From Phoronis australis (lineage: Eukaryota; Animalia; Phoronida), in contig NMRA01000002.1 in assembly GCA_002633005.1 (NCBI GenBank), positions 2,649,877 through 2,713,876 on the forward strand: a stretch of 64,000 bases of DNA, read 5' to 3'. Position numbers and translations under genes: made by a program. How positions within the stretch are numbered: position 1 is the stretch's first letter; each line of letters opens with the position of its first letter. Below, one piece after another: positions 12,918-64,000 of this stretch. The notes beneath the pieces are model-generated. The model searched no databases and was not told the DNA's origin. It saw only the letters and a list, made by a program, of their open reading frames with translations.

Positions 12918-14352
12918 TCAGGTGTCTCAAAAAGGTGAGTCACTTTTTCACAAGTTTTCATATTTCTTACAGATAAACCTTAGGATTTTATCAATAAATG
13001 TGCAAAATATCGAAGAGAACTGTCCAATTGCGCCAGTATTGTATAAATTTTAATTTTACGATACAAAAAACATCAGGTCAAAAAAATAAAATATCAAGGG
13101 GAAGCTCGCTTATTTCAGTCTACGTTCAATGTGGCCTCCATCTTCCTCCACGACAAAACGGAGCCGTTTCTTCCAACCAGAAATGCTCTTTCATATTTCT
13201 TCCATCGAAATTATATCCCATGACATAATTATCTTGTCTTTTAACTCATGCTCAGTCAATTTCTCGCTCATTCCCCAGTAAACTTTCTCCTTCAGAGAGT
13301 CCCAAATGGATTGCAGTAAGGACTGAGCGGAGGTGACTCATTCCTTTAGATGAATTTTGCTCCTCCATATATGAGCCTGGGTTATCTTGCTCGTGTGTGA
13401 AGCAGCCTCGTCTTGCTGAAACATATAATTGCTTCCAGGATAGTCATCCAATAGCTGCATGTAGCGTTGACTGTAAATTTGGCTCTATCAGTGTCAATAA
13501 AATGAATATTTGTTTTTCCTTCTTACAATACTCCAGCGGAAACCATTACTTTTTTGAAAAATCTGGAAGTCTCATGATAGAGTCGAGGAGACTGAATTTC
13601 TCGTTTTTTTTTCCCATAAACACAATTGTTTTGGCGATTTTTAGCGATTTCTAGCCTAAAGTCTTTTTCATCAGTGAAAAATTTCATCAGTGAAAATGAT
13701 TCTTTTCGCATAAATGGCTGAGTAGGGGTCATGCTGGTATTGGCATCGATTTTTTTCTTTCCTTCTAACATTTCGATCTTTCTGTGATACCTACATTCTT
13801 TTGAAGGGGCTTTAGCTCCAGTTTTTGTCATTCTTTGCACAGAAGACTTGCGCACTTGTAAAGCGCCTGCGACTTCTCTCGGAGATTTGTGATTCCCCGG
13901 GTTGTTTTGATGGGATTGAATCTGTTCCTCAACACGATCCTCGTTTTCTTTCGAACACGCGGTCTTGTGTCTCACACTTTTACGTGCAACAGACCCTGTG
14001 TTGCGTATTTTAGCAATAAGCCTATTTATAGCGGCACGACTCCACCGTTTTCCAGGGAACGTCCATGCGATTCTTCTTCCGCCTCACCGTTTCTTCTTGA
14101 AACAGTTTCCAATAGTAAATTCATCACTTAATCTTAAAAGCGTCCATACCAACCGGAATATTGGACAGAACTGAATTGGATACAGATCTGACAATAAAAA
14201 GCAAATATCATAGTACTTCCATAATTTTTAAAATTACTTTAGACAAGTTGATGACTCCCTGAAGATTCGTTGTGAAAATGTTGAACGAATTCGGTTGGCA
14301 AATTGCTAAGAAATTAGCTGTCAAAAAGTGGCTCACTTTTTGGAACACCTGA
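12918..14352 (-). mobile_element. Degenerate Tc1/mariner (maT/DD37D-like) transposon
   Basis: TIRs TCAGGTGTCTCAAAAAGGTGAGTCACTTTTT / AAAAAGTGGCTCACTTTTTGGAACACCTGA flanked by TA; minus-strand ORF 13523-13975 has an HTH-like segment (SPREVAGALQVRKSSVQRM) plus FFTDEKDF, NRQN and VMVSAG; frameshifted. Confidence 0.85.
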
Positions 14353-21759: not shown

Positions 21760-22183
21760 ATGTTGCGCTCCGTAGCAACAGGCCTTGCTAGAAGCTATGT
21801 TAAGTCGCTCCCCCTTTCAAGCAACCAAGTAAATTTTCTCAGGAAATGTCTGCCGTCCGTTGGCAGTTTCCACCAATATTGTTCGGCAGCAGAAACTCAT
21901 GACGAAGGTGGAGACGGCGACGATCCAAACTTTTATTTAATGGTGGAGAAGTTCTTCGATAGAGCCGCAGAACTCGTCGAAGATAAACTTATCGAAGATG
22001 TTAAAGTTCGGAACATGAGCACTGAAGAAAAACGAAAGAAAGTTCGAGGTATCCTACAAATCATCAAACCGTGTAATCACGTCCTGGCGTTGTCTTTCCC
22101 ACTCAAGCGTGACAATGGTGAATACGAAATGATTGAGGGGTACAGGGCTCAACACAGCCAGCACAGAACTCCTTGTAAAGGCG
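21760..22183 (+). CDS. GLUD1: Glutamate dehydrogenase, mitochondrial, exon 1 (transit peptide + N-terminus)
   Basis: Arg/Ser-rich presequence, then [16 protein letters not shown]...[16 protein letters not shown]; donor G|GTATGT; 424 nt, phase 1. Confidence 0.96.
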
Positions 22184-29089: not shown

Positions 29090-29275
<186 letters not shown>

Positions 29276-31412: not shown

Positions 31413-33011
31413 AAACCTTTGTTGTTCCTATTCCAAAGTTTGTGAATGTACTAACTCCAGTCTCATTTTTTTCTGAACTTGATCAATTTGCTCATTTTGG
31501 AGCACCTGTTTTGTACGTAGCTGCAAATAATTTGATATGAGGTGTTTACCACTGGTACACAAGCAACTCAAAAATCTTTTGAAAAATATAAAAGGCCTTT
31601 CCCACTGACTTCAAAGCGTTGGTGTTAGTGAAGTTTTGTTCAATGGGAACACTTAACTTTGGTCTTGGATTGAAGTTAACAGTGCGAGTTTACTCTTGAA
31701 TAAAGAAAGGGAGGATTTAATGGTGCAGCATCGTTGCTTCACTACAATGGGAACGCTTGTCACCAAAGTTATCGGCAGGGGTAACTGCATTTGCCAAGAG
31801 CAGGTGGTCACTGGTTAATATTTGTTAATATTTAGTTCTAGTTTGTTATTTCGGAAGTATAAGCATTCTGTTTCACTTTATCCATGTGTTTATTGGATTC
31901 TTGATATTACGAAAGAAAATGTTTGAACGCATATGCAAAACTTGTACCTGTCATAAGCCATACCACCTTTGTTTAGATCAGCTGATACTCAGCCACCTAG
32001 TGATAATTCCTCTGACTTGGTTGTCTGAACTGTAACACTTACTGGTAACTTCCAAGTTTGTGGTTAACCACTGTTAACATCAATGCTTTGATAGTAGCAG
32101 AGTTAACTGTGTGGGAAAGTGCCTTGAAAGTGAGTTGTAAATATCCAGTGGTTTGTTTCGTGAAAACTGAATTTTGGTCTAGTAATCCTCACAACTATTT
32201 GTGAAAAATAATTAAATCTCACTCGAGCAAATGTACAGTCTCTGAGACTATATAAGCATATCTGCTACGTAGTTGCTGAGATACCTTCTGTAAATAATTT
32301 CTATACTGTGACTCGCTCAGCATTGCTTGGCTAAAACTTAGAAGTGAGAGACACTGTAAAGGGCAGTTGGCATTACGCAGTTGGGGCAGTGGACTAACAT
32401 TCTTAATCGACCACAGGAAGCTTAGATTCAATGCGAAAGGTGATTTTAAACAGTCTATATTCAGTACGATACTAAGTTAGTACTCTAAAATAGAACGGAC
32501 TAGCAAGCGTACGAAAGTTGGTCCAAAAGGTTTGGTTCGGAGTATTTTGTTTGTCGACCATCCTGAATTATCTCCCCAATTCACGTAAGTGTGGTGTTCT
32601 TTCCGCCATTTTGTGCATCCTCGACATTGTTGCTGTTTGTGTCTACTCACTGTTCAGTGTACAAGACAAACTTCAAGTTAAACACACCTCAAAGTAGTAG
32701 AAGTGGTGAACGGTTGTCGTATCTGTATTGCAGTACGGCATAGTGACATCTGATGTTTAGTAAGATGAAGCTTTAAACTTTGGACGATGGAATGTTAGTC
32801 CGGTCAGGTTAGGAAGGTGACAATTATTTGATATGGTGTGTTTTTCATGCTGATTTGTTCCGACTGCGAACTAGTCTAAACTAACTCTAATGCGAAAGCA
32901 GCTTTAGACCAAATTTCTGTCTTCAGTCTTCGTGAAACAAAACTCCAGTAATGTACCTTTAAAACAGTTCTTCCGCACTTGCATTCTCTTCATGAAGTTT
33001 TACCATTGTAG

Positions 33012-33100
33012 GCAGCAACGAGTTGCATGCTTTTGCTTGTGTTACCGGTAAGCCCATTACGCAAGGTGGTATTCACGGGCGCATTTCAGCCACCGGAAGG
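33012..33100 (+). CDS. GLUD1: Glutamate dehydrogenase alternative exon 4a
   Basis: ttgtag|GC AGC...; (G)[29 protein letters not shown]; donor AGG|GTAGGT; 89 nt. Confidence 0.9.
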
Positions 33101-34016
33101 GTAGGTATCCAGCGTTCCCTGTCGTGTAGTGTCCCAACTAACACACTCTTGGCTTTGAAGTGCCTAACACACACGTTCATTCCCAAAATGGTAGCCATGT
33201 CTGTTGGTATTATGTAGAATTTTAAATTTTGGTTTACAGCCCATTCTTAAAGAATCGTCCACCCCTTACTTTTGAAAGTGTCTGATTAAGCACTCACGGC
33301 TCGGTTAAGGGCCTGCCCTCTGCTTTTGATAATGTGAACAGTTATGCGCCCACTGCTCTAGCTAGTGCATACAAGTGATTTACTTGCTGAATTGGCTTTC
33401 AAAACTGTAAGGACTTTCTTGACCGTCATATTGCAGGGCAGTCCTTGAATTTTGTCAAGTATTTTCAACTTGTATTTCTCCTTTCTCAAGTTCATGAATT
33501 TCACGTTTCGGTTAGAGAGGGCCAATTCAACTTCCAGTGTCGGTAACTTGCCCTGTGGCAAATTCTTAAAACTTTAAGTCAATGGAGTTTGATTTCAAAG
33601 GTCGTAAGTTGCTAGGGCAACCGGCTGGCTCAGGTCAAACGACCTTGTTTGGGTACTAGTATGCAGTCACAGTTTCTTGAAATTTATGATATAAGTGCCT
33701 ATCTCGTGTTAGAGTCCACTCTCCTGATTTTCCGGCTTTTCAATTTAAGCGTCACGCTACCCATGGGTGTTAACCCAAATGCTTATTAGGGTTAAACATT
33801 TTTCAAGTAATGAAAACAGACATGAGCAACCATTTTGGTAGTGTTGGAATTTGATTCCGTTGTCTTTCTTTCACTGTGTCTGTTTCTTTTGTTCTCCCAT
33901 TCTGTCATTTCAGTCCATCCCTTTCAGGTGGCAGCACTGTAACACGTGACTTGGTTGGGTGCCGTAACTGTAGCTAACCGTGTCTGTCACTTAGAAGTAA
34001 CCTTATGTTTTTGCAG

Positions 34017-34105
34017 GAGTAAACGATATCCACGCACACGCGTGTATTACTGGTAAGCCCATTACCCAGGGCGGCATTCACGGCCGTATCTCTGCCACTG
34101 GAAGG
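34017..34105 (+). CDS. GLUD1: Glutamate dehydrogenase alternative exon 4b
   Basis: ttgcag|GA GTA...; (G)[29 protein letters not shown]; donor AGG|GTATGT; 89 nt. Confidence 0.92.
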
Positions 34106-35626
34106 GTATGTAGCCTGCCTGTGATCAGTTGCCCTGACTTGTCACTGCAACGCTGCTACAGCTGGTCCCCGGTCTTGGGGTCGGACCAAGATGGGGGGCT
34201 GTGTGTTTTTCTTGTTTGCTCTGGGCTTGTAGATGATGTCAAATCTTGTTTTCTTTGGCTATCATCGGGAGGTGATCGTTGTTGTGTGAATTGCACCTTA
34301 TGATGTCCTGCCATTGCTGGCTTGCACACAGCTACAATCCGGGGATCATTTTGCCAAAGTTCATACGCTTGGTTTTAGCTAAGGTGGTTGTAACATAGAT
34401 ATTTACTGGACATTGTGGTGCTTAATTTATTAATATGATTTCTGAAGCATGATGAATGTTTCGCTAAAAATTTTTTTAAAATTTTGTGTTTGTTATAAAG
34501 TAAAAGTGCCTGTGACCATCTTGGCTTCAACCAGATGTATAACCTTCCGTAAGACGGGTCTCACTCCCAGCCTGATGTTCACTGAAAGTTCACGCCTCGC
34601 AAATTGTTCCAGGCAAACAATTTTTACAGCATCTGCACCAATGTCTTTTGTGGATAGCATGAGCTCTTATATACACTAAGGGTTGTGGGATATCGGTTTT
34701 CCAAAGCAGCACTGTTAACAGAGTGACGTCATTTTAGTAGTTTTAGAGCAGCCTGGTGTTCAGGTCACAAGTAAGCACAGATATCATCTATCCGACATGA
34801 ACTGCCTTGCCGGGCCAATGATCACTTACCTGACATTTCTTTGAAATCGTCAGGATTGGATGACTTGTATCCCTCAATTCTACGCTCTCGGATGCATACC
34901 CATAAGTTTTCGCTATCTGTAAAAATGTCGATAGCAAACCAGAGTTATCTTGGTATCATGATGAACTTGCGAGTGGTGAACAACAGTTTCTGCAGCCTAG
35001 GTCCAATTCACCCTGCCATTTCCTGCCAATTAATTTTAGTTTCCCCTATTACAAAATGCAATGTGGCATATCTGGTTTGGAAAAACTTTTTACCACATCA
35101 GAAGGGACTATATTTAATGCTAACAAATTCTCTGATTTGAGGAGTCCTTTTTTTGATTCATGATTATTTAATGCTGGGACAAATTAAATTGTATTTTGTT
35201 ACTTACGTACTACAGTACTACAAAATCCACCAAAAAGTTTGACGTCGTTCTTATTTTAGCCCAGATATTGTATGGCATTAAGTGATCTGATGCAGTCATT
35301 TTATAAAATACTTGCTTCGTGACAGTTCCATTATTAGTTTACGTGCTGTCAATGTTGTCATGTTTCACCCAGGGGTCGGGGTTGGGGTTGGTATCGGTAT
35401 CGATCTCTCTGTACTCAAAATCAGACTTGAAATTATTGTTGGCTTTTTCTCTTTTACCTTTGTGTGATAAGTGGCTACAGAACTGTGCTCGAGCGCACTG
35501 TGGTTTACGCGTATGCGGATTGCTGATTATATAATTATCCAAATCTCGTGTGAAAAAGGCGAAATGCCGCTCATGGGATGGATGGGAAAATTGTTGGTTG
35601 AAAACAGTAATTGCACAGATATGGGG

Positions 35627-35698
35627 TCCTCAGTAGCTCAGTGGTAAGAGCACTTGACTGTCAATCTAGAGACCTGTGGTTTGGTACCAAGTTGGGGT
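35627..35698 (+). pseudogene. tRNA-Asp(GTC)-like pseudogene or SINE head
   Basis: A-box TAGCTCAGTGG; anticodon arm CTTGA-CTGTCAA-TCTAG; degenerate T-arm GGTTTGGTACC. Confidence 0.5.
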
Positions 35699-35954
35699 TC
35701 CTGATTTTTCTGTGCTTATTTGATATGGGAACACTTCTGTCAGTGAATTTTTGTATGGTAAGTCATATGTACGCAATGAAATACAACTTTTTCCAAGCAC
35801 TCTTTTAGTTAAGCCCTCTGCTGCATGAAAGTATTTTCTGATTACACAGCAGTTCAAGTCTTCTTAGTTCTGTATGAATGTTTATTCGCTATTTTTGCAA
35901 ATAAATTGTTCTCTTTGTTGTTTGTGAATTTCCATGGTCAGTGTTGTTAAGTTT

Positions 35955-36870
35955 TGTCCACACTACGAGTTACCCTAGAGAAACTGGCCCCAGAGCAACT
36001 TACTTTAGAGCAACTAGCCCCGGGGCAAGTTGCCATTATTCAGCCGGCTGTTCACGCTACACAACCTAGACCTGGCGACAAATATGGTGCAAAGGTGATT
36101 AGACTTAGACATTCATATAGCTGTAACAGAGCGAGCGCGGAGTTGGTAATTGCTTCCGCCTTATCTGCAGGGTTGCCTCCATACTAGGAGTTGCTCTGGG
36201 CATGTTGCCCTGTAGCAAGTCTCGTCCCCAAGCCTGAAGATGGCGCTGATCAGTTTAACCGTTTGAGGCTTGGTTTTGAGAAATAGCTTCTGTGCAATGA
36301 TTGGCCGCTGCCTTGATGTTATTAAAACAAAGGCAAATTTAATTATTTTTACAGGCGTTGTTGCTGCCATTCATGAAACAGAAGGCATTGTTTTTGTGAT
36401 TGTTTGAAATAAAAGTTGTTGTTGTACTTATTTTCAATTCTTTTTTATTAATAGTACCATAGATATTAATCTGTTTTCGAAACTAAATACATCATTTTTG
36501 CAATAATTTGGACCTATATTGCTGCAATATACCGTTAGTTTTCATCTTTATATTATACTGCAGAAAATTTCAAAGTTGATATAACTTTATATTACACGTC
36601 ATATTCCAGCGATTTCTGTAAAAATGTGTCAGAATTGTGACACATTTCATTTTCCATAACCATGCCTCAAATTGCTAAACCGTTCATTGCCAACTTGAAG
36701 CTTGGGGACTAGGCTGCCCTATTACAAGTTACCCTACCTCTATTATGTGAGGCAAGTTTTCTCGATCACGCCAAGTTGCCCCAATGTACTATTATTACAC
36801 AACCTAGTGACAATTCATTCCAGGAGTAACTTGACTTGTTCTAGGTTAACTCTTAGTGCGGACGGCACTT
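35955..36870. mobile_element. MITE or non-autonomous element (GTCCACACT / AGTGCGGAC termini)
   Basis: Inverted ends GTCCACACTACGAGTTACCCTAGA / TCTAGGTTAACTCTTAGTGCGGAC. Confidence 0.5.
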
Positions 36871-37093
36871 AGCACCATCTTGTTGTTGACGCCTGCACTA
36901 AATGTGTGCTTCTGTTTCTGCTGCATGATTCCTAGTTTCACTAAAAGTCTTGAGAGTTAACGATTTTTGTTTGATTTCAATTTGTAGATGCTAGGTTAAG
37001 GCTAGTTGTAATTTGCGCAATTGAAATTTCCTGAGAAATTCACGTGTTCCTTCATCAACCTGCAGTTCTCATTCCACATTCTTTCTGCTACAG

Positions 37094-37192
37094 GGTATTT
37101 TCCACGGAATTCAGAACTTTGTGAACGAGGCTAGTTTCATGAGCATGGTTGGCTTGACACCATCTCTAGGTGACAAGACCTTTATTATTCAG
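37094..37192 (+). CDS. GLUD1: Glutamate dehydrogenase exon 5
   Basis: ctacag|GGT...; [33 protein letters not shown]; donor CAG|GTGAGT. Confidence 0.96.
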
Positions 37193-54963: not shown

Positions 54964-56216
54964 CTGAGTGAAAACACGGTTGAATTACTTTTAACAAATA
55001 AAGAAACAAGACAAGTATGATGATTTTACCCATGAAACATTGGGTATACTCAGCTAGATTCTGGGTTAGTGAAAAATAGCTCTAGAAATCAAATGTTAAA
55101 AAAATAATTTTATGTGTTGTCATTCGAGGAAAAATTAGTTTCCATTTATCATTTACTTAAAGCGACTAGTATAAACATGCCTTTAATGATAGAAACTTAA
55201 TTTTGACTTAGACCAACCAATTAACGTCTATGAAACTGATCTCAAGTTTTCTTTGGACAAATGAAAAGTGATTTCTGGGGATTGAAAGAACGACAATTTC
55301 TTGATTCCTTGAGAACAGACTTTATACATTAGTTTTGTCCCGACGGGTTACAAATGTCTCATATCAAGCAATAATGATCTGTCATTTTTCTCCAAGCTCA
55401 GAAACAACTTTTCGTCTGAGTTAGGAATAGTTGTTCAATCGTAGTATGCATTCTAAATCAGAAATTAGTTTCTTTGGAAGAACTTGGGTTTAAAGCCACA
55501 TCAATAGCATAGGGTGCGCTTGTATAAAAAAAACTACACGCTGGATAACAGCAATGACACCAAACTATCGCATGTCACGGGGCCACTGTTGATTATGGTG
55601 CTTGTTTTGAGCCAGATGTAACCACAATGACGGCCAAGTGCAAGCTGAACTTACTCTCGGAGTAGCTGGAACGAGACATCATGAAGGAGAAAGAGAATTG
55701 CGTCTGATTACTTTTAGCAGGTGAGCATGGACCTCGCTATAATAAATTCCTGGGAGTAACGCCAGGTTAAAGATAGATATAACATACCCGCATTTTGAGA
55801 ACTAATTTTCTCCCATGAATAACGGACATCAAACTGGTTCTCAAAATGTGGGCATGTTATATCCGACTACTGCCGTAATGCCCTGCTTTATGCTGTTTTT
55901 GCGGACACTGCAATTAACTATATAACATACTTCGTAATTCTGAATTATTCAATAAAAGTTTCTGATGCAGGCATTTTGAAAATGGAAGCAAAATGAATTA
56001 CTTTTACAAGCATTTTTGACAAATAGGACTGCAAGCTCTTACCACATGACAGGTCCATGTTTTGAAACACTTAAACATACCAATAGCGAACTGATTTTGG
56101 TACCACAGAAATAAACAAACCTCGAGACTTATCAGTGGAGTTTGTTATAATTTTCAAAGTCTAACCTCTTCTGTGTCACACAAACTAATTAATCATAACT
56201 CGACCTATGACCTTAC

Positions 56217-56520
56217 CTTACTAAACACTATAATCGTCCTCGACTCAGGCATTTCAAACAGGTGAGGTAGTAAGACCGTGCTTTTAATATTTGACATGAA
56301 CTTTGTCTTCTTCTTTGTCTTCATGTCGAGGGTCATCTCTAGGTACACAAGTCCCTCCATATTATCCAACATGGCTGGCTGGGCAAGCTCCTTGTGCATG
56401 TCTAGCGACTGTTCCAGAGGGAAGTCAGGTCGAGGGAAGTCGACGTGACACCACACATTATCTGTCGGCTTTCGACTTAGAAACTCTTCCAATTTTTCCG
56501 CACTCATCGTCTGCTTTTTC
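56217..56520 (-). CDS. MRPL1: MRPL1 exon 3
   Basis: ttgcag|...KPTDNVW...LDMKTKKKTKF...VLLPHLF...IIVFSK|gtaagg. Confidence 0.9.
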
Positions 56521-57425
56521 CTGCAAAATCAACACATGATTTCTTCACACTCAGGAATTTGCATTGGTTCTAACAGCAGTTCAAGTAAAAACTGTAAAAA
56601 CACAAACTACAAATAATATATGAATAAACACTCGATGAGCTTCCAAAATTGAAAGAACTTTGTGACCACTATGTCAATAAACAGTTTAGTCAATTTCCCA
56701 TTTTTATCATGGTAATCCACTCAGCTCGTTCCTAATGAAGTAGCAAATTTAGAGAAAACGTGAAAATTCACAAATATGCCAAACTGTAGAAGTGCATGCC
56801 AAACTCATCAGGATCAAATTATAAACGATGGTCGTTTCAAACCATTCCCCTGGATTGTTAAAACCAAGAAATTTCCAATGCCACGGTCTATTAAACTTGG
56901 CAAACAAGCCTGTTGTGTTGGTCTACAGTGCGTGTGAAGGAGTATGTCACACGTTTTTGAATCAAAAGGAGAAAGTTTAGGCAATATTCTCTGCAAGTCA
57001 AGCGTATTTCATACAACACATGTCTTCTTCACAACAGCTACATTTGTTAAAATCGTTTGCAAATAGTATTTCTTACATTTCATAGTATCAGCCACACTAT
57101 ATACAATATAACTGATGGATAACATGACTTAATCAAATAAACTCAGACAACGAAAGCACTGGACTACATAAATTCTTGTTTACCAACTTTCTATCCTTGC
57201 TATTGCTGCCAAACTGATAACGACACGGCTGTAACCCAAGTTCCCGATCACCGCATTCAGAATTACCCCACCTGCACCGCAGAAAAAAAATTATGAATAT
57301 TCTACAGCTCCGTTTGCGATATCGCAGCAATGTGACTACGAAAATGATGTAAAGATCACCAAAGTTACCCCATCTATACAGAAAGCTTTAACTACGGTCA
57401 TTTAATAGCAGTTCCCCCATCTTAC

Positions 57426-59681: not shown

Positions 59682-60990
59682 TAGACACTGACTACTTCTG
59701 GCCGGAAGCTTTTCAGCAAATTATTCCTCACATTAATTAAAAGATCAAAGGCACATTGTTATAAGTACCTTTTGTGCATAGAGGGACACCTTAGGAGGCT
59801 GTCGATGTATTTTAATGCCTTCTTGGCTATTTCAACACTTTAACACTGCACTTGCTCCTGGCAGTCGCAGTAAAAACAGGAGCGTGTGCAGTGTAAAAAT
59901 GACCAATTGCCCACTGAACGAAGAATAGATCGAAGAAGAAAATTGATTATGGGAGTATTTTTCGAGTTGGAAGGAATTAAAGGCATTGACTTCCTTCAAA
60001 GGTATCCCTCTATGTGCAAAAGGTACTTATGGCTTGCCACCCAGACAAGTTTAGTGCCCCTCACCCTGATCAAAAAACGCCAAATCCAGCCCACCTCCTA
60101 TGTACTTCACAATCACACGCTAAAGTCGGTCAAGGAAGCTAAATATTTGGGCGTTCTCGCATGACCTCAAATGGTCATCCCTCATAAGCAACATCCAGAA
60201 GAAAGAAGTAAAACTCTGGGCTTTCGTAGGTGAAACGTATAAGCAGCCAACGATATAAGGAGTTTGCGTATGAAACAATGATTCGACCCTCCTTGGAATA
60301 CGCCTCTACTGTTTGGGAGCCTTATACCCAAAAAGACATTGAATCTGTAGAGAAAGTACAGAGGAGAGCGGCTCACTGGGTCACGAGATGGTTCAATCGT
60401 CTATCCTCTGTTGGTTCAATGTTAGAAACCTTAAACTGGCCCACCCTCAGCCACAGATACAAATATGATACGAAGTCAGTGATCATCAACTCTGATGTTG
60501 CCCCTATTGCAGATCTTACTATCTCTGGCATCTGTACCAGAAGGTCGTCCAATTATAGTATTCCAATAAAAAGGACAGGTGACAGGAAAAAGACATTCTT
60601 TCCTAGAACAGTCGCGGACTGGAATAGCTTGCCGGGCTGCGTTACATCCGTCCCTTTTCTTGATATCTTTGTCAGCAAGCTATCTGCCTTTCTGAAGTAA
60701 CTGACTGCCTTATCTGTTAACGATCTAGCTATATCAACCGACCTCTGAAGTGACGTCCACTATGTATATGTATCCTTTTAAACCCGTTATAGTTCTCGTT
60801 TTTGTTGATCCTCATTGTTATACAGTGACATAATACTCTGGAGAGAGTGTGGTCACTTAAACCAAGAAGAAGAGGAGAATATGACTGATGTTGTAATCAG
60901 TGTGAGGCATAATTCACCAAAAAGCTCTCATCATATGAGGCCCCTTCACCTTCTCTACTGGGGCCAGCTAGAGACTGTGGTCACTGTCTA
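59682..60990. mobile_element. Foldback element, copy 3, interrupted by a LINE; 9-bp target-site duplication
   Basis: TAGAC...GTCTA flanked by CTTCTGGAG / CTTCTAGAG; the right arm resumes after the LINE tail. Confidence 0.75.
60033..60876 (+). mobile_element. 5'-truncated LINE (CR1/L2-group) RT C-terminal fragment
   Basis: KYLGV; YETMIRPSLEYASTVWEPY; EKVQRRAA; FFPRTVADWNSLP; (GAA)n-like tail; stops and frameshifts upstream. Confidence 0.85.
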
Positions 60991-62991: not shown

Positions 62992-64000
62992 ACTTGAGTC
63001 ACAGGCAATGCATACTTGGGTCACGGACAATGCATACTTGGGTCACAGGCAATGCATACTTGAGTCACAGGCAATGCATACTTGAGTCACAGGCAATGCA
63101 TACTTGGGTCACGGGCAATGCATACTTGAGTCACAGGCAATGCATACTTGAGTCACAGGCAATGCATACTTGAGTCACAGGCAATGCATACTTGAGTCAC
63201 AGGCAATGCATACTTGAGTCACAGGCAATGCATACTTGAGTCACAGGCAATGCATACTTGAGTCACAGGCAATGCATACTTGAGTCACAGGCAATGCATA
63301 CTTGAGTCACAGGCAATGCATACTTGAGTCACAGGCAATGCATACTTGAGTCACAGGCAATGCATACTTGAGTCACAGGCAATGCATACTTGAGTCACAG
63401 GCAATGCATACTTGAGTCACAGGCAATGCATACTTGAGTCACAGGCAATGCATACTTGAGTCACAGGCAATGCATACTTGAGTCACAGGCAATGCATACT
63501 TGAGTCACAGGCAATGCATACTTGAGTCACAGGCAATGCATACTTGAGTCACAGGCAATGCATACTTGAGTCACAGGCAATGCATACTTGAGTCACAGGC
63601 AATGCATACTTGAGTCACAGGCAATGCATACTTGAGTCACAGGCAATGCATACTTGAGTCACAGGCAATGCATACTTGAGTCACAGGCAATGCATACTTG
63701 AGTCACAGGCAATGCATACTTGAGTCACAGGCAATGCATACTTGAGTCACAGGCAATGCATACTTGAGTCACAGGCAATGCATACTTGAGTCACAGGCAA
63801 TGCATACTTGAGTCACAGGCAATGCATACTTGAGTCACAGGCAATGCATACTTGAGTCACAGGCAATGCATACTTGAGTCACAGGCAATGCATACTTGAG
63901 TCACAGGCAATGCATACTTGAGTCACAGGCAATGCATACTTGAGTCACAGGCAATGCATACTTGAGTCACAGGCAATGCATACTTGAGTCACAGGCAATG
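62992..64000. repeat. Homogeneous 22-bp minisatellite (ACTTGAGTCACAGGCAATGCAT), at least 45 copies, runs off the window
   Basis: Near-perfect tandem array with variants only in the first few units. Confidence 0.98.

Follow-up and report, generated by a model that had tools for sequence, protein, structure and literature searches.

A predicted long-range RNA stem between two exclusive exons of the Phoronis glutamate dehydrogenase gene, and its possible role as a bridge for splicing proteins

An RNA stem that controls the choice between exclusive exons is an already known kind of splicing control. In FGFR2, the IIIb/IIIc stem, formed by ISE-2/IAS2 with ISAR, is reportedly bulged and intronic and brings control elements together (Muh 2002; Baraniak 2003). 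Frameshifted double-exon mRNAs of FGFR2 are said to be handled by nonsense-mediated decay (NMD) as a back-up (Jones 2001). Other systems work by crowding. α-Tropomyosin is said to achieve steric exclusion through a distant branch point, and exon 17 of Dscam reportedly combines steric hindrance with RNA structure (Yue 2013).

Further systems have been described. Around exons 7a and 7b of human ATE1, the elements R1 and R4 compete for R3, and loss of pairing raises the level of double-exon products (PMC7797038). Exons 4.1 and 4.2 of Drosophila srp are governed by bidirectional pairing that acts by approximation, and the structure is dispensable once the loop has been deleted (PMC4691838). STAR proteins form another group of regulators. 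QKI bound to the upstream intron leads to skipping and bound to the downstream intron leads to inclusion (PMC9122611), while the protein is also a rival of SF1 for ACUAA branch sites (PMC13004596). CUAAC repeats allow ASD-2 to repress a 3′ splice site (PMC3469465). Exclusive exons often have the support of NMD, as in 14 of 29 C. elegans clusters (PMC4165533).

The window, that is, the whole 64-kb stretch of Phoronis australis DNA analysed here, holds a glutamate dehydrogenase (GDH) gene of the GLUD/Gdh type at 21760–43020; this gene, its exons and the structural elements and motifs around 4a and 4b lie on the + strand. It has ten constitutive coding exons plus a tandem pair, exon 4a (33012–33100) and exon 4b (34017–34105), placed between constitutive exons 3 (29118–29204) and 5 (37094–37192). 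Both members of the pair are 89 nt long, share the same phase and translate as (G) plus 29 residues, with 74% nucleotide and 83% amino-acid identity to each other. When the exons were joined by script, either choice gave an open frame of 551 amino acids, and the product is 78–81% identical to its closest fetched relatives. In a 39-row tree the Phoronis protein could not be placed and stood outside the groups of molluscs, vertebrates and arthropods that received support. The two isoforms differ at five residues, including His/Phe at human position 199, which we take to be part of the regulatory NADH site. The counterpart of the 4a/4b exon is human GLUD1 exon 6, which lies within the GTP allosteric domain (PMC9887739). 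No duplication of other GDH exons was found within the 64-kb window. Within the literature collection searched, no paper turned up on glutamate dehydrogenase with exclusive or duplicated exons, and none on the role of His195/199. A tRNA-Asp(GTC) or tRNA-derived repeat lies at 35627–35701 in the 4b–5 intron, and both-strand reads occur there. Elsewhere in the window, a neighbouring gene on the − strand has an exon at 56208–56528 that resembles mitochondrial ribosomal protein L1, 22-nt tandem arrays occupy 62992–64000 and 2773–2960 (45.9 and 8.6 copies), and the remnants near 60230–60697 and 13526–14083 are presumably reverse-transcriptase-like and transposase-like, respectively.

Exon usage was read from the raw-read RNA runs X6, X7 and X8, of which about 18–19% each was read; joints were listed from three reads or a contig upward. 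Exon 3 was joined to 4a by 23, 14 and 26 reads in the three runs (sum 63) and to 4b by 43, 35 and 34 (sum 112). The joints to exon 5 had 32, 24 and 28 reads from 4a (sum 84) and 45, 32 and 24 from 4b (sum 101). No joint from exon 3 directly to exon 5 was listed in X6–X8 at this threshold. These reads confirm the first-pass annotation in treating 4a and 4b as a real alternative pair, mostly used exclusively. The joint from 4a to 4b had 0, 2 and 0 reads, so that 2 of 86 4a-donor reads led to 4b (95% CI 0.3–8%). X5, an intron-rich set of contigs taken as RNA by guess, contains a 58-nt contig in which the 4a donor and the 4b acceptor meet exactly, with no letters between (joint 33099–34016). Its depth is 43.8, against 126.5 for the 4a–5 joint, which puts 26% of the 4a-donor depth on the double-exon joint; this share is indicative only, because the depth of a contig reflects level poorly. 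It differs tenfold from that in X6–X8, X5 having the larger value. The 4a-to-4b splice is physically possible though the pair is exclusive in mature RNA, and the idea that the fold of the intron blocks this splice does not hold as an absolute block, given the exact joint in two reads of X7 and in the X5 contig. Most 4a donors skip 4b for an acceptor 3 kb beyond; the use of 4a thus entails an active bias against 4b.

Since the exons are 89 nt long, including both or skipping both gives a premature stop. The double-exon mRNA reads GAG TAA at the joint and stops at codon 269, which is 820 nt before the last junction, and the mRNA that skips both exons stops at codon 251, far upstream of the last junction. 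Both arrangements thus show the premature stops, well upstream of the last junction, that mark NMD-assisted exclusion. Because the 4a–4b splice creates an immediate stop, the double-exon mRNA is a predicted NMD target and is probably removed by that route. Read depth across the 4b–5 intron (34256–37093) is about twice that of intron 3 in X6–X8, which may reflect later removal of the downstream intron or 3′ bias.

The 916-nt intron between 4a and 4b carries a long-range stem as its main structural feature. Its 5′ arm (selector 1, 33183–33205) begins at +83 from the 4a donor, and its 3′ arm (the dock) lies at 33815–33838; the arms can be extended to 33178–33213 and 33806–33843. The first-pass description of this stem proved accurate, with 22 Watson–Crick pairs, one mismatch, one bulge and a 609-nt loop, and every sequence quoted in that annotation was found where it had been placed. 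A helix of 10 bp (33183–33192/33829–33838) is followed by an A–A mismatch, 2 bp, a bulged A at 33825, and a second helix of 10 bp (33196–33205/33815–33824). Folding predicted the stem with a mean pair probability of 0.99–1.0 in all 12 folds, which combined four contexts with three temperatures. When one half of the intron was set against the other, complementarity scored 39 against 19.8 ± 2.3 in dinucleotide shuffles, and none of 1000 shuffles reached it; the energy test was weaker, as −33.2 kcal/mol was reached by 2 of 60 shuffles. Judged by these shuffles, the complementarity of the arms is beyond chance. When the window was divided into 266 overlapping tiles of 916 nt, 12 of them, the intron's own tile included, also scored at least 39, so that inverted repeats of this strength cannot be called very rare in the genome.

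The arms do not look like the ends of a recent transposon, a possibility raised in the first-pass annotation. Each occurs once within the 64-kb window with no second copy, and their depth bins are free of the both-strand reads that mark repeats at 32064–32337 (repeat near 32186–32231). The intron has no Rfam match, and none of 80 loci in a metagenome scan matches it. A nested mid stem (33315–33338/33500–33522) is predicted at 0.96; it carries five variants, one haplotype of which weakens its pairing by 5 kcal/mol, and it is probably not constrained. No strong stem was found around 4a or around both exons. Pairing of the 5′ arm with the 4a acceptor was considered and is weak (−9.7 kcal/mol), and a dock homolog above 4a fell short of significance, with 123 of 1000 shuffles doing equally well. 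Upstream of 4a, inverted arms at 32161–32231 and 32905–32929 match over 21 nt at 86%. Their loose ends, their both-strand reads and a joint at 32231–32906 point to a small palindromic repeat family, not a splicing stem.

Sequence variation was counted from 36 substitution rows, from which ten exonic rows and position 33691 (a contig from another locus) were removed and to which two indels were added, giving 27 sites across the intron. Of these 27 sites, 2 lie in the 307 nt made up of the two intron ends together with the arms, against 9.05 expected (P = 0.0015). Within the arms themselves, none was seen against 1.39 expected over four runs (P = 0.24). Tests on single runs were weak (X1, P = 0.19; X7, P = 0.04), the longest variant-free gap was not significant (P = 0.27), and coverage was uneven, X5 being without both flanks. 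The three variants nearest the structures leave pairing intact or improve it slightly: the extended stem goes from −38.6 to −39.3 with 33812, a hairpin that stands at −3.3 reaches −4.2 with 33859, and 33945 makes no difference. The low variation hints that the intron ends are constrained as far as the stem, but it is no proof of selection for the pairing itself. Splice signals alone suffice to conserve intron ends.

Candidate protein sites lie on both sides of the stem. Below 4a, a Quaking/STAR-type candidate ACUAAC is found at 33137–33142 (+37 of the 4a donor), and a second candidate, CUAAC, at 33164–33168 (its A33167 at +67). Before 4b, a motif scan found four UAAC within 33940–34001 (33940, 33965, 33975 and 33998). 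The last 80 nt upstream of the 4b acceptor hold four TAAC and all ten other acceptors none (Poisson 4e-4), while the first 80 nt after the 4a donor hold two CTAAC and all ten other donors none (Poisson 2e-3); both motifs were chosen after looking at the sequence. This layout, below 4a and above 4b, follows the STAR position map save for an extra site above 4a. That site, an ACUAAC at 32880, 132 nt above 4a, is equally good and misfits the simple QKI position map. A bipartite ACUAAC-N-CUAAU is also present at 32872–32894, about 130 nt above 4a. Phoronis resembles the known STAR switches (QKI, PMC9122611, PMC13004596; ASD-2 on unc-60 and let-2, PMC3469465, PMC4165533) in having CUAAC/UAAC clusters below one exon and over a 3′ splice site. 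Unlike in those switches, most of the Phoronis sites are half-sites, only one of the six UAAC-type sites being a full ACUAAC, and STAR binding is a candidate only.

On the reading that we favour, with a confidence somewhat short of even, the inner stem would be an RNA bridge that joins protein-binding elements in an FGFR2-like, leaky and NMD-backed manner. The 22-bp stem would fold out about 610 nt of the intron and would place the elements below 4a beside the 4b 3′ splice-site region, which would couple the use of 4a to the repression of 4b. A STAR-family protein of the Quaking/How/ASD-2 type could bind ACUAAC/CUAAC below 4a and activate 4a, and the same protein could sit on the UAAC cluster over the 4b branch region and repress 4b in competition with SF1. 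A protein on the long pyrimidine tract before 4b might perhaps aid this repression. Where the STAR protein is scarce, 4b would be the default. Exclusion would then be regulated and leaky, not steric, and NMD would clear the double-exon mRNA. The shortened intron should itself favour 4a–4b splicing, and the bridge model therefore depends on an unproven repressor.

By analogy, the Phoronis bridge would be most like the FGFR2 IIIb/IIIc intronic stem in function. At both loci a single bulged stem of long range is confined to the intron that separates the exclusive exons, reportedly in FGFR2 and by prediction in Phoronis, and both have frameshifted doubles, whose removal by NMD is predicted in Phoronis. 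Unlike in FGFR2, the candidate protein sites in Phoronis are UAAC/ACUAAC, and neither the ESRP-type UGG nor the Rbfox-type GCAUG motif is enriched. The bridge model shares with srp the principle of stems that act by approximation, but both srp stems enclose an exon and the supported Phoronis stem encloses none (PMC4691838).

The first-pass annotation had proposed a second, outer stem nested around the inner one, which would bring the 4a donor to within 50 nt of a branch-point A at 33977 and so block 4a–4b splicing sterically. This is the least probable of the readings weighed here. The arithmetic of the distance (32 + 18 nt) stands if both stems form, CTAAC does sit at 33974–33978, and both outer arms are free of variants; proteins or co-transcriptional folding could also favour a helix that equilibrium folding rejects. 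However, if only the inner stem forms, the path from donor to branch measures 221 nt, where steric exclusion calls for less than about 50 nt. Nine outer pairs can be drawn, but an equally long helix arises in 55% of 500 flank shuffles, and the short duplex is as stable in 34.5% of 200 shuffles. All 12 folds gave the outer stem a probability of 0.000, and imposing it carries a penalty of 13.1 kcal/mol at 37 °C (14.8 at 25 °C). Each outer arm prefers a local hairpin: the 5′ arm (33133–33141) is predicted to pair with 33124–33131, and the 3′ arm, UUGGUUGGG, pairs within a predicted hairpin at 33948–33984 that hides the CUAAC at 33974, although the fold of 33919–33996 is not unusual against shuffles (z −1.2). 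Because the outer stem is at chance level, has a probability of about zero and is costly, the 50-nt geometry fails. Candidate 4b branch points lie at −75, −50, −40, −24 and −17, and two unused AGs (33993 and 33996) stand between the proposed branch A, the −40 site, and the acceptor used. The observed 4a–4b joint, with its quarter share of 4a-donor depth in X5, also speaks against a steric lock. A different steric arrangement would need no outer stem: 4b would branch at A33141, which the inner stem would set about 58 nt from the pyrimidine tract. We regard this as very unlikely. In its favour, the heptamer AACTAAC around A33141 (+41) is the best match to the branch consensus in the scanned intron ends, at six of seven positions, and +41 falls in the 25–46 nt range given for OGDH distant branch points (PMC7969005). 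The gene's most pyrimidine-rich 70-mer (33856–33925, 81% C/T) begins 17 nt past the stem. The branch-like heptamer and the long pyrimidine tract thus recall OGDH 4a/4b, but the Phoronis intron has 916 nt, contains many AGs and permits double inclusion. Known cases have an AG-free zone from branch to acceptor, whereas here eight AGs lie outside the stem before the acceptor used, which argues against the use of A33141 as a branch. Two of them are TTTCAG at the end of the tract; no joint to them was listed, the TTTCAG at 33908–33913 inside the tract included. A recursive site at 33927 (TTTCAG-GT) was likewise rejected, as no joint was listed there. Furthermore, the observed 4a–4b splicing would need a second branch point.

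A further alternative concerns a degenerate copy of the 5′ arm below 4b (selector 2, 34184–34218). Here the dock (33804–33843) would be contested by two duplicated selectors, one below each exon; a dock paired with selector 2 would put 4b in a loop and so yield the 4a isoform, and one paired with selector 1 would free 4b. We judge this competition unlikely. Apart from its cognate arm, the dock has no better partner in 4089 windows of the gene than selector 2 (−28.2 kcal/mol; the next reaches −25.6), which is also the best sequence match to the 5′ arm among 20611 positions (26 versus 24). It lies at +81 from the 4b donor, an offset that matches the +83 of selector 1. The two selector windows are homologous (1 of 1000 shuffles as good), whereas the stretches from +7 to +75 are not (888 of 1000), and the pairing with the dock is strand-specific (−28.2 sense, −16.0 antisense). 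The layout fits the duplication model of PMC6071210, and, as in ATE1, one element would have two possible partners near a two-exon pair. On the other hand, the similarity and complementarity tests depend on each other, 54 of 2000 local shuffles do as well, and the dock ranks only third among the partners of selector 2. The pairing is 10 kcal/mol weaker than that of selector 1, and selector 2 is transcribed later. Even with selector 1 blocked, its pairing probability with the dock was 0.000 in six of six folds, because selector 2, half of which lies in the local hairpin 34164–34200, is held there at −26 kcal/mol; perhaps it is a remnant of the duplication that has been disabled. Unlike the ATE1 pairings, which hide 3′ splice sites (PMC7797038), the Phoronis arms overlap no splice site; both candidate selectors lie below their exons, and folding does not predict the second pairing. 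The 4b donor itself is predicted inside a hairpin (34106–34159), which is followed by the strong hairpin at 34164–34200 (z about −1.9). If A33141 were the branch after all, this duplicated selector could switch the arrangement off: the stem would bring an ACUAAC that is 876 nt from the 4b acceptor to the tract, so that an AG-rich intron of 916 nt would mimic the compact OGDH class. Such a combination is highly improbable; if true, the regulatory exon of glutamate dehydrogenase would be under a steric lock that is built from RNA structure and can be switched. Rather less doubtful than the competition between selectors, and still on the unlikely side, is that the stem is incidental or only shortens the intron, exclusion being the work of NMD together with splicing proteins bound to the conserved ends of the intron. 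This would agree with the frameshift that 89-nt exons impose on double and skipped products, with the double inclusion that does occur, with inverted repeats as strong in 12 of 266 tiles and with the lack of significant variant constraint in the arms alone. Two metagenome contigs with three copies of the exon (L032 and L033) also lack a strong intronic inverted repeat (best scores 11–22). Against it, variant density falls at the outer edges of the stem, the arms, judged from the window and the reads, do not derive from repeats, and a second dock-complementary sequence persists at the matching offset below 4b while the flanking homology has decayed.

The same exon is duplicated in other animals. 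Thirteen isoform pairs were compared. In four of them, from Mytilus, the differences are confined to five positions in the 4a/4b-type exon; the Mytilus pairs duplicated at this exon include P0255/P0210 and P0260/P0259. The Gigantopelta pair differs in the preceding exon (exon 3), and the Liolophura and Mercenaria pairs differ in the antenna exon. These pairs from other molluscs (P0169/P0252, P0251/P0163 and P0219/P0268) are equal in length and suggest that exon duplication has been repeated in the GDH gene. In the metagenome loci, of which the first 45 of 80 were inspected, three tandem exon copies were found at 2180–3125 of L032 and 640–1615 of L033, and neither has a strong intronic inverted repeat or a stem comparable to that of Phoronis. 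The duplications are likely independent in origin, because 4a and 4b share a His that is absent from the Mytilus copies. At human position 199, the copies carry different residues in Phoronis, Mytilus and L032/L033 alike. Since this position varies between copies each time, allosteric tuning of GDH through exon choice seems, on these comparisons, to have arisen repeatedly. Worked examples of exclusive exons controlled by RNA structure come, in the literature surveyed, nearly all from insects, chelicerates or mammals. The Phoronis GDH gene would be a compact two-exon case in another invertebrate lineage, one that falls outside the molluscs, arthropods and chordates in our tree.
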